From: Escherichia coli | GTDB lineage: Bacteria > Pseudomonadota > Gammaproteobacteria > Enterobacterales > Enterobacteriaceae | Assembly (NCBI RefSeq): GCF_045037415.1 | Contig: NZ_CP173440.1 | Length of the DNA stretch: 64,000 bases | Direction: 5' to 3' (one strand) | Shown here: piece after piece, positions 1-6,000 of the stretch | Layout: each line of letters opens with the position of its first letter | Position numbering within the stretch: position 1 is the first letter of the stretch | Made by a program: the position numbers

Positions 1-3000
1 AACAATGCTTATTCACCAATTTACCCAGACCCCGATGAACTGACAATTTTTGGCGTGGTGACTCATTGGGTTCATCGTGCCCGGGGTAATCTGTAATGTA
101 TGCTCTGGCGGATGTGAACAGCTTTTATTGCAGTGTTGAGAAATGCTTCAGACCCGATTTACGCGATAAACCAGTGGTCGTCCTTTCTAACAACGACGGC
201 TGCGTTATAGCTCGTTGTAAACTGGCCAAAAAATTCGGCATTCCTATGGGTTTACCCTGGTTTAAGTTGCGTGAGCAGCGCTTCCCGGAGCCCGTGATTG
301 CCTTCTCCAGTAACTACGAGCTGTATGCCAGCATGAGCGCCAGAGTACATTTCTGCCTGGAGGAATTATCATCCCGTGTCGAAGAGTATTCCATCGATGA
401 GTCTTTTATTTGGGCTGGTGGGATTGATAACTGCATGACGTTTGAGGAATACGGACATCAGCTAAGGGATCATGTTTTCCGCTGCACTGGACTGACGATA
501 GGGGTAGGCCTGGCCCCTACAAAAACCCTTGCGAAAGCCTGCCAGTATTCCAGTAAGACCTGGCCCCAGTTCGGAGGGGTACTCGCACTGACTGCAGGCC
601 AGCGTAATCGGATAGATAAGATGCTTTCTCTGATGCCGGTAGAGGAGGTGTGGGGGGTTGGTGGACGAACCACAAGTAAGCTTCATGCAATGGGCATAAC
701 CACTGCGCTGGAGCTGGCTCGTACTAACCCTGCATTCATAAGACGAAACTTCACCGTAGTTCTTGAACGAACAGTGAGGGAACTACGGGGAGAAAGTTGT
801 ATCGACCTGGAGGATGCCCCGCCACCAAAACAACAGATCATATGCAGCAGGAGCTTTGGGCAGCGTATAACAACGTATGAATCCATGCGGCAGGCAATTT
901 GCCAGTATGCTGAACGTGCTGCGGAAAAATTGCGCCAGGAACGTCAATACTGCGGTCAGGTATCAGTTTTCATAAAAACCTCGCCTTTTTCAAAACATGA
1001 ACCCTATTACAGCAAAGTCTCCAGCGAACAGCTCTGCATTCCATCACGTGATACGCGGGACATTATCGCGGCGGCTGGCCGGGCTCTGGATAAAATCTGG
1101 AAAGAAGGACATAACTATGCAAAGGCGGGAGTCATGCTCAACGATTTCCGTCCCTGCGGAGTTACCCAGCTATCGTTATTTGATGAAGGGAGGTCGTATG
1201 CAAACAGTGACGCGCTCATGAACGTACTGGATACGATAAACAACTCAGGCAAAGGCAAAGTATGGTTTGCCGGTCGTGGCATCGCACCGGCGTGGTCAAT
1301 GAAGAGAGATATGCTCTCTCCAGCCTACACAACGAGGTGGGACTCGATACCGATCGCTACACTCTGAGTTATCGCAATCAGGAAAAATGCCTTCCGTCTG
1401 CTGGTGGTTGATATTTGCTCTGGTGTTACCATTTGGGTATAATGTAATGACCAAATGGAGGTTTGCTATGAAAACTTTTAGTTTGTCCTCAACTCCAGCC
1501 AGACCACAGCGCCTCTGGCAGGTTGCCGGGTTAAATAATGCTGATGGTGTAGCGCTCCTGGGCCAAATCAATGAAGGCCTGGACGGGAAGGTGGTGAACC
1601 GGATCACTGACTGGGCCAGAATAACCCAGAATGACCTGAGAAAAATGTCCGGTATCCCGTCAACCACATTTAGCCGCAGTGTGAAGGCACGTTTTAACCC
1701 GGAACAAAGTGAACGTCTGGTACGGATTATCCGCGTTATTGATCGGGCGGTAGATTTGTTTGAAGGCGACAGGGAAGCCGCACAGAAGTGGTTGAACGAA
1801 CCTAACCGGGCATTGAGCTGGAAAGTGCCAGCAGACCTGATGGCATCCGAAACGGGAGCCTATGAGGTCATTAAGCTGATTACGCGTCTGGAGCATGGGG
1901 TGTACTCGTGATCCTCTACAGGCTGACGAAAACAAAGTATCTTTCTACGGCCTGGACCGGATATGGTGCGAAAGAGGCTGGTGGGCGCTGGAATAGCGTG
2001 GGGGTGTCAATGGTATATGTCTCCGAAACGGCATCACTAACGATGCTGGAGACCCTGGTACACCTGCATGCGGCACAGATAATGGACTCTTTCACGCTAC
2101 TGAGTATCGATGTGCCTGATGAACTGATACAAAGCGCAAACATGGATGAATTACCGGGCAACTGGGCTGATGAGGATGCGCCTCAGGAACTGGCTGATTA
2201 CGGAGATGCCTGGTCATTTACCAGGAGCTCGGTTGCACTGCGTGTTCCCTCAGCCTTATCGCCGGTAGAGTTCAATTATCTGTTAAATCCTGAGCACCCT
2301 GAGTTTTACGGGATCGTGCAGAAGGCTCAACAGATACCGTTCCGGTTTGATAGTCGTCTTAAACCTGACAGGAAGTGAAGCAAGAGAGGATAGGGCGCTG
2401 TCATGATGCCTGGCGCTCCTGCCCGGTGTCACATAAAAAAGCCCGCCAGCGGCGGGCAAAGACTACACACAGCTATTACAGGATGATTCAGGCAGTTTCT
2501 TCGTAAACGTTGTAATCCAGTTTTGCTCCACTGTAATTCTGCAGACTACGGGCTTTATTCATCGCGCAGCTGAACGCATTCGAACGATCGCCTGCACTCC
2601 CGTTATGCCCATAGCGGGCAATTTCATACGGTTTCTCATAACTGCATTCTTCCAGCACAATAAAGGCTCCCGGTTCACTGGTCAGCAATTCGAAACCAAG
2701 ACCTGCGGCTTTTGTATTCCTTAGCTGGTAATATGCAGTGAGTGTCATAATTGATTCCTTAAATAATACCGATACAAAGATATTTCTACAGGCATTGTTG
2801 AGTCTGTGAAATTGCTGATAGTTCAGAGTGCCTGTAAGTAATAATAACTTATTCAAGTGGCGCGTCAATTGGTAAATAACCTTACCGTCATTATATTTTG
2901 AAAGAAATACAATCAGGAAAAGTGACTTTAAAAATCTCTTTCGGATATGACGCTACTGATATCTGATATTGCCTGGAGAATTTTGTCATAGGCGTAGACC

Positions 3001-6000
3001 TCTATTTGGGCGTAAATCTTCAATCTGGTAGCTGAGTCGTTTGGTTAACATCAGACATGGGCGCAGCTGGCGAACAAGGGGGTTGTTCTGGCACTACATT
3101 GCGTCTGCACAGAACCGCTACACTGGACGGCGCAGAAGTGGTAACCGGAGCATATCGACAGAGGGGAAAATTCATGACTGAACTCCAGCAGATGCCGGGA
3201 TGCAGGGCAGAAACACGGCGGAAACCATCTTAAAAGTTATTAACTTACCAGCTTATTAGCCCTGGGAGGATGGGAGTAAACACGGTATAATGGTGTCGGC
3301 GCTTGAGGCTTTTTGCCTCATGATGTTTGAGTGTTTTGATGTTGTGAGGCAGAAAGAAGAAAGCCCCGTAGGACGTTAATTTTCATTAACCAACCACACG
3401 AGGCCATCTGCTTGACTAGACACCAACAGAGTAGCCTCTTAGCTGCCGTAAGGCAAGGAGAAAAAGGCTATGAAACTGCCACCTAGTAACCTGTTATGGT
3501 GTGTATTAATAGTGTGTCTCACACTACTGGCATTCACCTACCTGACCAGAAAATCGCTCTGCGAAATCCGGTACAGGGACACAACCAGGGAGGTGGCGGC
3601 TTTTATGGCCTACGAATCCGCTAAGTAGCCAACCCCGGCGGAGGGCAACCTCCGCCGTACAGGGGCTGAACTGTCTGGACATGCCTGAAGCGCTTTATGA
3701 AGGGGTTACCAGTGCGCTGGTAGCCCCTTTTTCCTGACTACATGAAATAAAAAAAGCCCGCACGACGACGGGCAAAAAAACACATTCATCTTTCTACACA
3801 TGGATTCAATGAATCGCAAATCAATATAGCACACTTCACTCCATGTGACACCCTGTCATCAGTCTGAAAACCGGACGGAGACACAGCTTTATCCTGACGT
3901 CTGCTCAATGGATGAGGGGGGCATCAATATATTAAATTACTGGCTAATTAAATCCATGAAACACAATCAGGAAAATCATTAATACTAATTTTCCTGTCGG
4001 ATTTTATACGCCGGTATGCTGCATGTTAACTGATAAAAACTCTGGATGATTCTGAATGCTGTAAATGACTAAGGAATTTATAACCGCTTTGGTATGCATT
4101 TCCCGTAAGCTGGAAATAGCTTCCGGTGATGATAAGGGGTTGATGATCGTTATTTTATTGGTATCCTGGTGTGCATGAATGAAATATTCGCTTATACCTT
4201 GCCAATATTTTTTTAAACAGGGGTTCACGAATGAAAACTCAAAACACACCAGCCACTCACAGCGACATTCTTTTTACCCATATCGTGAATATGCTGGTGG
4301 ACCTTGCTAAACATGAAGGCACTCTAATGACGTTTGAAGGCCTTCTGCGGCACGGTATCGAGGTAGATGAAGAGATGATGGATAGCATGCTGGGGGTGAG
4401 TCAGGACTCAGCTGCTCAGTGCGTGGTTCAGCTAAGGGATTGTGGTGCCATAACGAGCCCTGCGGTATATGAGATGGTTACACACGTTGAACAACTGGCG
4501 ATGCGTTTAGCCCCAGACTGGTGGAAGAAAATCGTGCCATGGTCGGTTCAGCCGCTGCGGTACTACCAGGAAGAGGCTAGGGCAAAACGCGAGCGATTTA
4601 TTGTCTGTCAGAGGGAGCGCCAGTACCCCTTCAACGTCTACGTAACAGGTCAGGTAGAATATCCGGAAGATGACCCGATATATGGCACGTACGTTACAGA
4701 AGGTACGTTCCTGGTAGGTAAAGCGAAAACCATACATGATGCCCTGGAATGCGCAAAAGAAGCTTTTACGCGGGGTGAATGGATTGTCCTCGAAGAAGAA
4801 GGGCGGGATGAGTTCGTTGACCACCTGACAGGACGTGACCAGGGGCCGGTGAGTTTTTCCGAAAGGACTATAGAGATCCGCGATAGAGGTGACAGGCTGG
4901 TGTTAACAGGCAATGCCCGCACACTGGAGTGGCACCGCCATGTAACCAGCCCTGATGAGATCGAAAAGATAAAAGCACAGCAAAAAGACCTCTATCAGAA
5001 AGCAAGCTATGAGAGTGGCTGGGACAACTACGAGACTGCACGACAGCTGCGGCGGCAAGCTGAACAGTTATCTCTCGGTTTTGTTGAAGAATGCTGGCGT
5101 AACCATCCGGAAGTAATTCAGGCGGTAGAGAAGTTCGAGTATCCGGTGTTTATAGATGAGGAGATGGCTCTTTTTAATGCAGATCAGGATGCTGGTATTG
5201 ACTGATGGTCAGCTGGTGGCCGACGCGAACATTATGAACCGGAATCGCCCGGAACAGGTGTTGCTGGGCGGTTGGCTGTCTATGGCCATCACTTTAGCCC
5301 ATTTCTCCTGAATGCAAATTCTCCGGTACTGTGACACCGGCTGAGCCAAACGAAACGGACAATCAGGAAAAATATGCTGCTCGTTACTTGTGCCCGATCA
5401 AGCTACTGCTGGGTCAAAAACTCTGTGGCATATTCAACAGTGTCGAGAGAGGCACATCCCGACATGCCAAAAAACCGGCGATCATCGACACCGTTGATCC
5501 TGAATGGGACAAGGGTTCCAGAATAGCCTATCTGGACGTTTAGTTCTTCAATCACTATGTCCCGACGCTCCAGCTGCGGCTTAGAGAAAACACGCTCTCT
5601 GTTCACGAGTATGTCCTGAATGACGGCATCGGTTGCCTGACCAGCTGTAACCGTGGGACAGGCCTTGATATCAGCTCTGAGCGCTGCTTTCGACTCAAAA
5701 TAATACAGCGCGATAAGTCCGCACAGCAGCAACACAATGCCCGCCATACCCAAACCAACACCCTTCAGGAACCTGGACATACTACATCACCAATAGCATA
5801 TGGATGAGAACAAGAAAGAAGCCAGAAATTTGCCATAAACATTCTGTGTAATCCAGTCCAGAAAATGACAATAAACAGCAGCCGGCTCCCGGCAGGCTTC
5901 TGTCTTATCAGCAACCAGGAACGATGGGTTTATCATTTTCCGCTATCTGTCGCGCTGAATTCAAAATGCCTGGAGAAGGTTGAATGGTGAATTAGAGTAA

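Follow-up and report, generated by a model that had tools for sequence, protein, structure and literature searches.

A selected intergenic 12-mer in the backbone of a pNDM-MAR-type plasmid and its possible role as an operator

The 12-mer CAATCAGGAAAA is found four times, without a mismatch, in a 64,000-nt stretch of Escherichia coli plasmid DNA (contig NZ_CP173440.1; the whole stretch is referred to below as the window), and its recurrence there and persistence in related plasmids mark it as a cis element of non-coding DNA that is non-random and under selection. As to its role, we tentatively favour an asymmetric protein-binding site on double-stranded DNA, which would serve as an auxiliary or half operator of a backbone regulatory network at the upstream edge of gene modules; this is put forward as a leading candidate rather than as the probable answer. 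The first 8 kb of the window are 100% identical to pKpvST147B_virulence (NZ_CP040726.1), a Klebsiella pneumoniae IncHI1B/IncFIB plasmid of the pNDM-MAR type (MOBH/MPF_F), and coordinates marked "record" refer to that complete plasmid of 339,117 bp. Approximately 1,500 PLSDB records match this region.

Recurrence and conservation of the 12-mer

The four exact copies, c1 to c4, are placed as follows.

1375-1386, + strand: c1, 8 nt past the umuC stop (1367) and 82 nt before the start of an Xre-type antitoxin (1468)
2910-2921, + strand: c2, in a divergent spacer, fused to a palindrome variant
3964-3975, + strand: c3, 256 nt upstream of the start (4231) of an open reading frame, ORF324, and 176 nt upstream of the ORF324 -35 element
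5360-5371, + strand: c4, between convergent genes

The second copy is 162 nt upstream of an 86-amino-acid (aa) minus-strand gene and approximately 375 nt upstream of a hok/sok locus, and the fourth is 155 nt past the ORF324 stop and 32 nt beyond the stop of a 125-aa minus-strand gene. Neighbouring copies are separated by 1054-1535 bp. In dinucleotide-preserving shuffles of the window 0.00 copies are expected, and when every 12-mer of the window was counted, at least four copies were reached by CAATCAGGAAAA and the family of a palindrome, AAAGTNACTTT, alone (the maximum in block shuffles was 2-3), so that the repeat survives the objection of multiple testing. The complete plasmid holds eight exact copies against 0.05 expected. 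A relaxed form of the motif, CA[AG]TCA followed by 0-3 nt and RAAAR, occurs at 15 sites in 106 kb against 1.9 +/- 1.3 expected, with 12 of the 15 on the gene-sense strand. A chance origin was rejected on the shuffles, the 12-mer census and the whole-plasmid count.

An earlier note on this DNA, made from the sequence alone, had placed the four exact copies in intergenic DNA and suggested an enrichment test; coordinates and annotation agree with the former, and the window and plasmid counts just given bear out the expectation behind the latter. The annotation is that of the identical record, by which all four copies are intergenic; the reading frames that cover the copies at 3964 and 5360 are unannotated and without conservation, and no conserved one was found over either. 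The element is thus biased both in strand and towards intergenic DNA. The note's further observation, that each copy follows GAAA-rich sequence, stands for three of the four: gaaagaaata precedes the copy at 2910, gaaaca that at 3964 and cgaaacgga that at 5360, and these share the extension ACAATCAGGAAAA with a GAAA-type lead, but the copy at 1375 follows gagttatcg and is without it. Beyond the terminal GGAAAA the sequence reads ATGCC at c1, TCATT at c3 and ATATG at c4, and a longer repeat unit was rejected, as the flanks of the copies fail to align past GAAA-n-ACAATCAGGAAAA.

Conservation was followed in relatives at 90-96% identity (L003, L006, L022 and L023), in pKpNDM1-type plasmids at approximately 76% identity (L002, L004, L009 and L021) and in L005. 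Copies in the close relatives are exact or carry one G-to-A change, and the spacers around them are altered. The orthologues of c1 are exact in L003, L006 and L023 and read CAATCAGGGAAA in L002 and L004 and CAATCAGGAAAG in L005. In the spacer equivalent to that of c2, upstream of the 86-aa gene, the motif is exact at L002:6738, L004:6627 and L009:900 and takes the form CAATCAGAAAAA at L005:5242; at L002:6738 and L005:5242 it sits in a spacer that is otherwise unalignable with the window. Orthologues of c4 are exact in L006 and L022 and read CAATCAGAAAAA in L003 and L023. A further orthologous pair, between the DUF6012 and DUF4942 genes, consists of an exact copy at L020:4030 and CAATCAGAAAAT in the window's plasmid, in flanks that are dissimilar.

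At four orthologous sites the identity of the motif to the window is 0.96-1.00, a figure inflated by those sites that were located via the motif itself, against 0.32-0.81 for the non-coding flanks: at c2 the motif stands at 0.98 and its flanks at 0.60-0.72, at c3 the motif stands at 1.00 and its upstream flanks at 0.32-0.64, and the upstream flanks of c4 are at 0.56-0.81. In a spacer of 500 nt, a match with no more than one mismatch would arise by chance with a probability of approximately 0.002. Twelve bases at 96-100% amid flanks at 32-72% therefore reveal selection on the sequence itself, beyond shared ancestry, and this selection is purifying. The CAATCAG heptamer is invariant among the orthologues and the tail varies by G/A exchange or AG insertion alone, a pattern which would fit a recognition core plus an A-tract read by its shape. 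Absence from homologous regions, which the earlier note regarded as damaging to its proposal, was looked for, and the motif was found to be conserved there instead. A search by ORF324 alignment in species-representative genomes gave nine loci, mostly short Pantoea contigs, and exact CAATCAGGAAAA was found in L009 (Klebsiella grimontii) and not in the other eight.

Plasmid setting, backbone palindrome and candidate operator

Besides the four copies in the window, the complete plasmid carries the following.

Record 317488: exact copy joined to a palindrome without mismatch (CAATCAGGAAAAAGTTACTTTT), with a 68-aa gene 113 nt downstream
Record 312684: exact copy, inverted and intergenic, just upstream of the -35 of a DUF957 promoter
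Within DinG-like coding sequence: two exact duplicates, one at record 206966

Apart from the duplicate at record 206966, no exact copy was found in accessory resistance or virulence DNA, and none was found in the tra regions. Recurrent copies were not found in R27 (IncHI1), so that we regard the element as confined to the pNDM-MAR-type and pKpNDM1-type lineages.

The genes around the four copies are these.

Stop at 1367, + strand: umuC
1468-2378, + strand: Xre/RES toxin-antitoxin pair
2488-2748, - strand: 86-aa gene
3297-3472: sok of the hok/sok locus (Rfam)
4231-5205, + strand: ORF324
5403-5780, - strand: 125-aa gene

Genes on the + strand here form the tail of an array of approximately 50 kb of same-direction, mostly unannotated small genes, which converges on a minus-strand operon that runs from a nuclease-related gene through traD and mobH to mobI (approximately 9.3-19.3 kb); the same layout of array and operon is seen in R27. 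In an F-like plasmid of Pantoea a distant homologue of ORF324 is flanked by psiA and traM/oriT, and the block therefore has the character of a leading or establishment region. The earlier note had suggested a site shared by the stability genes, and this link did not hold: the copy after umuC is kept where the toxin-antitoxin cassette downstream differs or is missing (Xre/RES is swapped for DUF1778/GNAT in L005 and absent in L002), other copies precede ORF324, the DUF4942 gene, the 68-aa reading frame and an Ig-like gene, none of them stability genes, and the copy at 5360 lies between convergent genes.

A closer association is that with the palindrome AAAGTNACTTT (extended consensus rAAAAGTnACTTTTy), of which 92 perfect copies are present on the 339-kb plasmid, confined to the IncHI backbone and located in spacers and coding sequence alike; groups of 5-6 lie close to repB (FIB) and ahead of a 413-aa gene, approximately 25 sites fall in window 6429-37000, and 150 kb of R27 contain 40 copies. 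It looks like the site of a putative IncHI-wide DNA-binding protein. The 3' GGAAAA of CAATCAGGAAAA is the left arm of this palindrome, and of 208 palindrome half-sites, 11 have CA[AG]TCA immediately on their 5' side, where 1.4 would be expected; no such preference was found in the flanks of ordinary palindromes, which makes CAATCAG a separate element that associates with the palindrome. The earlier note had seen the copy at 2910 abut a palindrome variant. That overlap is real, and the association extends beyond it: AAAGTGACTTT, a one-mismatch variant of AAAGTNACTTT at 2919-2929, shares the last 3 bases of c2 in the composite CAATCAG-GAAAAGTGACTTT, and the motif-palindrome composites comprise CAATCAGGAAAAGTGACTTT (c2), that at record 317488, CAATCAAGGAAAGTTACTTTC, CAATCAGAGGAAAAGTTACTTTC (a pKpNDM1-type site) and CAATCAGAAAAAAGTAACTTTC. 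Orientation tracks the local gene: at record 27228 both the composite and the gene downstream of it are carried by the opposite plasmid strand.

The palindrome is itself associated with promoters. A backbone promoter family consists of GGGGnTTGATG, 16 nt and (G)TATCCTGG(T), with members at window 4136-4169 and 8836-8865 and at many sites upstream of the window (L018); its -10 region always carries a Dcm site (CCTGG), the palindrome usually stands before it, and many AAAGTNACTTT copies lie approximately 20 nt upstream of it and 100-113 nt upstream of start codons. The cassette of ORF324 is laid out as follows.

4112-4169, + strand: ORF324 promoter cassette, a degenerate palindrome followed by -35, spacer and -10
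4112-4124, + strand: degenerate palindrome GGAAATAGCTTCC
4136-4145, + strand: GGGG-TTGATG, followed by the 16-nt spacer
4162-4169, + strand: TATCCTGG

The third copy is the distal element of this cassette, and at the DUF4942 gene of both lineages the same order is found, with the palindrome approximately 147-176 nt downstream of the motif and then the promoter. At L002:6738 and L005:5242 the spacing from motif to palindrome recurs, but without a recognisable promoter of the backbone family. The copies at record 317488, record 27228 and c1 abut promoters or palindromes. Downstream of c1 there are also a Chi site and a TTGATA.

1400-1407: Chi site
1408-1413: TTGATA

On the operator reading, a CAATCAG core would run into a purine tract that is at once the left arm of rAAAAGTnACTTTTy, and such sites would mark the upstream edge of modules in the same-direction gene array that converges on the mobI-mobH-traD operon. 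The site would take two forms, one fused to a full palindrome beside a promoter and the other standing alone, with a cassette of palindrome and promoter (GGGGnTTGATG, 16 nt, TATCCTGG) approximately 150-210 bp downstream. A protein would bind CAATCAGGAAAA, this protein would be encoded by the plasmid lineage itself, and the outcome would be transcriptional control; once bound, the factor could act together with the palindrome-binding protein, loop to it or stop it. We also considered, as a rather unlikely elaboration, that a second factor specific to the lineages of Klebsiella and Raoultella (pNDM-MAR type and pKpNDM1 type) recognises the 12-mer and docks beside, or captures, the AAAGTNACTTT-binding protein. 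If this were true, IncHI plasmids would possess a two-component system of global control or DNA organisation that is new to the literature and comparable to the clamp capture of KorA/KorB, and it would set the boundaries and the timing of expression of the establishment and maintenance array in NDM and hypervirulence plasmids.

Several findings weigh against the operator reading. When a full palindrome was sought (AAAGT and ACTTT arms about a single central base), c2 alone carried one, with one mismatch, and c1, c3 and c4 are without the GT and the right arm that it requires. R27 has the palindrome and no recurrent 12-mer, and the two elements are therefore separable. The distance to a promoter varies, from approximately 16 nt from a -35-like element at c1 to 176-213 nt at c3 and the DUF4942 sites, and c4 lies between convergent genes. 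The inverted intergenic copy at record 312684 is not conserved in the pKpNDM1 type, and the motif identities are inflated as described above. Pfam found no DNA-binding domain in 26 neighbouring hypothetical proteins (24 without any hit), and the sole DNA-binding domain in those scans was the helix-turn-helix of the Xre-type antitoxin itself.

Competing explanations

A different explanation takes the 12-mer to be a short conserved joint for the exchange of modules, either as microhomology or as the relic of a duplicated spacer cassette, with no regulatory role; this we consider unlikely. By BLAST, homology blocks do end or begin 0-40 nt from c1, c3 and c4: the match between the window and L005 ends at 1385, blocks conserved with L003, L006, L022 and L023 start at 3924-3946 beside c3, and a block conserved with L006 and L023 starts at 5331 beside c4 despite approximately 2 kb of other genes inserted upstream. 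Modules have moreover been swapped around retained motifs (Xre/RES against DUF1778/GNAT, hok against Phd/Doc, with the order of hok and the 86-aa gene differing in L002), and Chi sites in the correct orientation are frequent in the region, as are insertions of insertion sequences (IS) and introns. However, the breakpoints are near the motif and not within it, and except at c1 the motif is inside the downstream block; a joint of this kind also sits poorly with the selection on the sequence itself that the contrast of motif and flanks indicates, 12 bp is short for exchange by RecA or a Red-type system, and no recombinase is associated with the 12-mer. Judged from these alignments, the motif acts as the outermost conserved part on the upstream side of each module, not as a crossover point. 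Were it merely a recombination joint, it would still help to explain how toxin-antitoxin genes and other cassettes are shuffled among these plasmids.

The four copies could instead be a strand-specific processing signal on the transferred strand, where 5'-TTTTCCTGATTG-3' with the DnaG triplet CTG would give complementary-strand primer starts (pppAG plus purines) every 1-1.5 kb or so. Their common strand and their spacing agree with such a signal, CAG (CTG on the other strand) is invariant and always followed by a purine, and the region has a leading-region character, as judged by the Pantoea ORF324 homologue between psiA and oriT and by a polar island of Chi sites towards mobI/oriT. We nevertheless regard it as improbable: the 14 kb from c4 to the presumed oriT hold no copy, nor does the remaining backbone on that strand, the record 27228 composite uses the opposite strand, in step with its local gene, priming leaves the tie to a palindromic double-stranded site unexplained, there is no strong single-strand structure nearby, and the polarity of transfer is itself inferred. 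Still less probable, in our judgement, is an element acting at the RNA level, whether as a ribosome-binding site, a GGA site of the CsrA type or a conserved leader (CAAUCAGGAAAA) at the 5' end of transcripts initiated shortly before it. At c1, c2, c4 and L002:6738 the AGGA has an ATG or GTG 0-4 nt past the end of the motif, which would suit it, as would the agreement in orientation between the motif and the downstream genes, and a good -35/-10 pair ends 5-13 nt upstream in 3 of 16 instances against 4.6% of background positions, one being predicted at 2869-2897. On the other side, the start codons and short reading frames are not conserved (there are none at L005 c1, c3 or L005:5242) and the peptides are unrelated, the GGA that is essential for both Shine-Dalgarno and CsrA recognition is lost in the variants CAATCAGAAAAA, CAATCAGAAAAT and CAATCAGATAAAAA, several copies lie downstream of terminators or upstream of a promoter cassette and are probably untranscribed, most copies are without a promoter directly upstream, and there is no Rfam match. 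A promoter in 3 of 16 instances is inconsistent as an explanation, and both the start of a small reading frame with its Shine-Dalgarno sequence, which would call for a conserved start codon 5-9 nt downstream, and a CsrA site were rejected on the grounds just given.

The earlier note had offered an operator or a structured site as alternatives. An operator-like role is the best available reading, held with the reserve expressed at the outset, and the structured site falls away. It would have the motif act as one arm of a hairpin, be it a terminator, an attenuator or a recognition hairpin in single strands, and the hairpin-capable inverted repeat with an 11-nt spacer that the note described at the 3964 copy is indeed present.

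3968-3976 and 3988-3996, + strand: inverted repeat, left arm CAGGAAAAT (within c3), 11-nt loop, right arm ATTTTCCTG

This 9-bp repeat is terminator-like on the minus strand and folds at -8.0 kcal/mol against -2.7 +/- 1.9 for shuffles. Yet a partner arm is present at one of the four copies alone, and the hairpin decays in orthologues whose 12-mer is intact: values in four orthologues are -2.5 to -7.8 kcal/mol, with L003 holding -7.8 and the other three at -2.5 to -5.6, all of the changes are in the right arm (mutated in L006, L022 and L023) and none is compensated by a change in the 12-mer. The wider region folds no better than shuffles (z = 0.26 and -1.81 for 2880-3300 and 3940-4235 folded as single-stranded DNA). 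With the partner arm so poorly kept, a structured site appears extremely improbable, and the same folds, together with the lack of conservation of the c3 hairpin, led us to reject a single-strand promoter or priming hairpin of the Frpo/ssi type.

A number of specific sites were also set aside. A homing site for group II introns was rejected, the L001 intron interrupting the umuD upstream region approximately 200 nt past the nearest CAATCAG and immediately before a LexA box, and no intron was present at any 12-mer. AATCAG fits the WATCAR of the IHF consensus (WATCARnnnnTTR), but the TTR position reads AAT, AGT, ATC and AAT in the four copies. The footprint of activator boxes of the AcaCD/SetCD type in MOBH elements centres on GCCC/GGGC (PMC8373056), and neither the 12-mer nor the palindrome resembles the GCCC...GGGC of such a box abutting a -35. 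An analogue of RfaH and its ops site was rejected, with no RfaH/NusG paralogue in the approximately 218 kb searched in two plasmid types, as were Ter/Tus sites (no Ter-like core, and no match to the Ter consensus in 100 kb around the Tus gene) and Rep iterons (no tandem repeats near repB). The search for known RNA families near the motif gave, above threshold, sok alone.

Among sub-threshold Rfam matches is one to the small RNA (sRNA) RprA at 2431-2532 on the - strand (42 bits, below the gathering score of 70; E = 0.016), which spans the terminator and 3' end of the 86-aa gene and could be an sRNA derived from the 3' untranslated region or a mere terminator match. Comparison of window 1-6000 with L002, L005, L006, L022 and L023 shows a mosaic hot spot, in which the cassette is Xre/RES, DUF1778/GNAT or none and hok/sok alternates with Phd/Doc; relatives hold approximately 2 kb of extra genes between ORF324 and c4, the hok and 86-aa modules are permuted, and IS481, IS630, a Tn7-like element and group II introns are inserted near the mosaic block. 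Approximately 230 nt upstream of umuD, just upstream of the window, are conserved (L001:505-736 and L003:1217-1448), with a motif-like start, ...GTTGCAATCAG(C/A)AAAGGCCTTACG, followed by a LexA box; a group II intron splits this region from umuD in some plasmids, and a type IV CRISPR array abuts it. A direct repeat, TGCCTGGAGAAkkTTG, occurs in three copies at 81-100% identity (2970-2985, 5967-5982 and 11952-11967), two of them downstream of 12-mer copies, and may be a chance family.

The window holds 27 Chi sites (GCTGGTGG) against 1.8 expected, 17 of the 18 sites in 0.4-13.5 kb (414-13451) being on the + strand. This polar island adjoins the traD/mobH/mobI operon, in an orientation that suits RecBCD entry from the mobI/oriT side; the 280-300 kb bins of record NZ_CP040726.1 count 18 against 1, and R27 has the same polarity at the equivalent place (8 against 0 at 90-100 kb). 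Record 80-100 kb has a second cluster, with the orientation reversed (8 against 0), close to the IncHI1B rep gene and to a Tus homologue, alongside which a toprim-domain protein is encoded at record 84805-86049, outside the window. The presumed oriT spacer upstream of mobI (19601-19720) has direct and inverted copies of AAAAAGTACTAATGA(AA) at 19601, 19657, 19685 (minus strand) and 19707, and two palindromes are found nearby at 19440 and 19542.

Significance and comparison with known systems

IncHI1B/IncFIB plasmids of the pNDM-MAR type and those of the pKpNDM1 type carry carbapenemase and hypervirulence genes in Klebsiella, and almost all genes of the approximately 50-kb array that bears the motif are uncharacterised. 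A selected 12-mer with a fixed heptamer core offers a bait for the proteins that control this array and a handle on the commoner palindrome shared with R27; if it is a control site, its mutation or the titration of its binder would probe the timing with which establishment, toxin-antitoxin and SOS-mutagenesis genes are expressed after transfer. Neither the 12-mer nor AAAGTNACTTT was found described in the literature searched, where string matches were to unrelated eukaryotic primers, and no regulator or operator for the array was found there.

Dispersed operators are nonetheless familiar on plasmids, and CAATCAGGAAAA shares with them over-representation in one backbone and orthologous conservation amid diverging flanks. 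The CUP sites of pKM101 have a 13-nt consensus, are bound by the plasmid repressor ArdK and lie upstream of leading and establishment genes in a region of exchangeable modules (PMC6289460, citing Delver and Belogurov 1997). In both systems several leading or establishment genes of a single plasmid are preceded by copies of a short conserved sequence; however, the two sequences are not similar, an ArdK homologue was not found, CUP overlaps promoters whereas most CAATCAGGAAAA copies do not, and the binding of CAATCAGGAAAA is putative. In the network of KorA (O_A) and KorB (O_B) operators of RK2 (IncP), a 13-bp palindrome is dispersed over the backbone at promoter-proximal, distal and promoter-less positions, often adjoined by a second operator that cooperates with it. 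The likeness is that of a dispersed palindrome with a second, distinct operator often beside it; the differences are that O_A is itself palindromic and CAATCAGGAAAA asymmetric, that no KorA or KorB homologue is linked to the CAATCAGGAAAA or AAAGTNACTTT sites, and that the annotated ParB of NZ_CP040726.1 is located elsewhere without a tie to the palindrome.

The heptads of the pSM19035 omega protein are scattered 7-nt operators of a ribbon-helix-helix protein. Comparable 7-nt operators of the Bacillus plasmid p576 are bound by the ribbon-helix-helix repressor Reg576 before establishment, partition and toxin-antitoxin genes (PMC6294495). With TTATCCC or WATCACW as the heptamer units compared, the invariant part of CAATCAGGAAAA is likewise a heptamer, and its AATCAG resembles AATCAC, but at least two adjacent heptads are needed in those systems against a single heptamer and purine tract here, the host phylum differs, and no ribbon-helix-helix gene was identified near the 12-mer copies. 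The ops element (GGCGGTAGnnTG, recognised by RfaH) is also 12 nt long and strand-specific, located on the non-template strand close to where plasmid and virulence operons begin; the sequences are unrelated, however, and several CAATCAGGAAAA copies are probably untranscribed. Tus/Ter offers asymmetric sites clustered in one orientation, and the plasmid does encode a Tus homologue (record 88822-89781), but CAATCAGGAAAA is unlike the Ter core GTTGTAAC, Ter is approximately 23 bp long, and the distribution of CAATCAGGAAAA follows genes and not replication.

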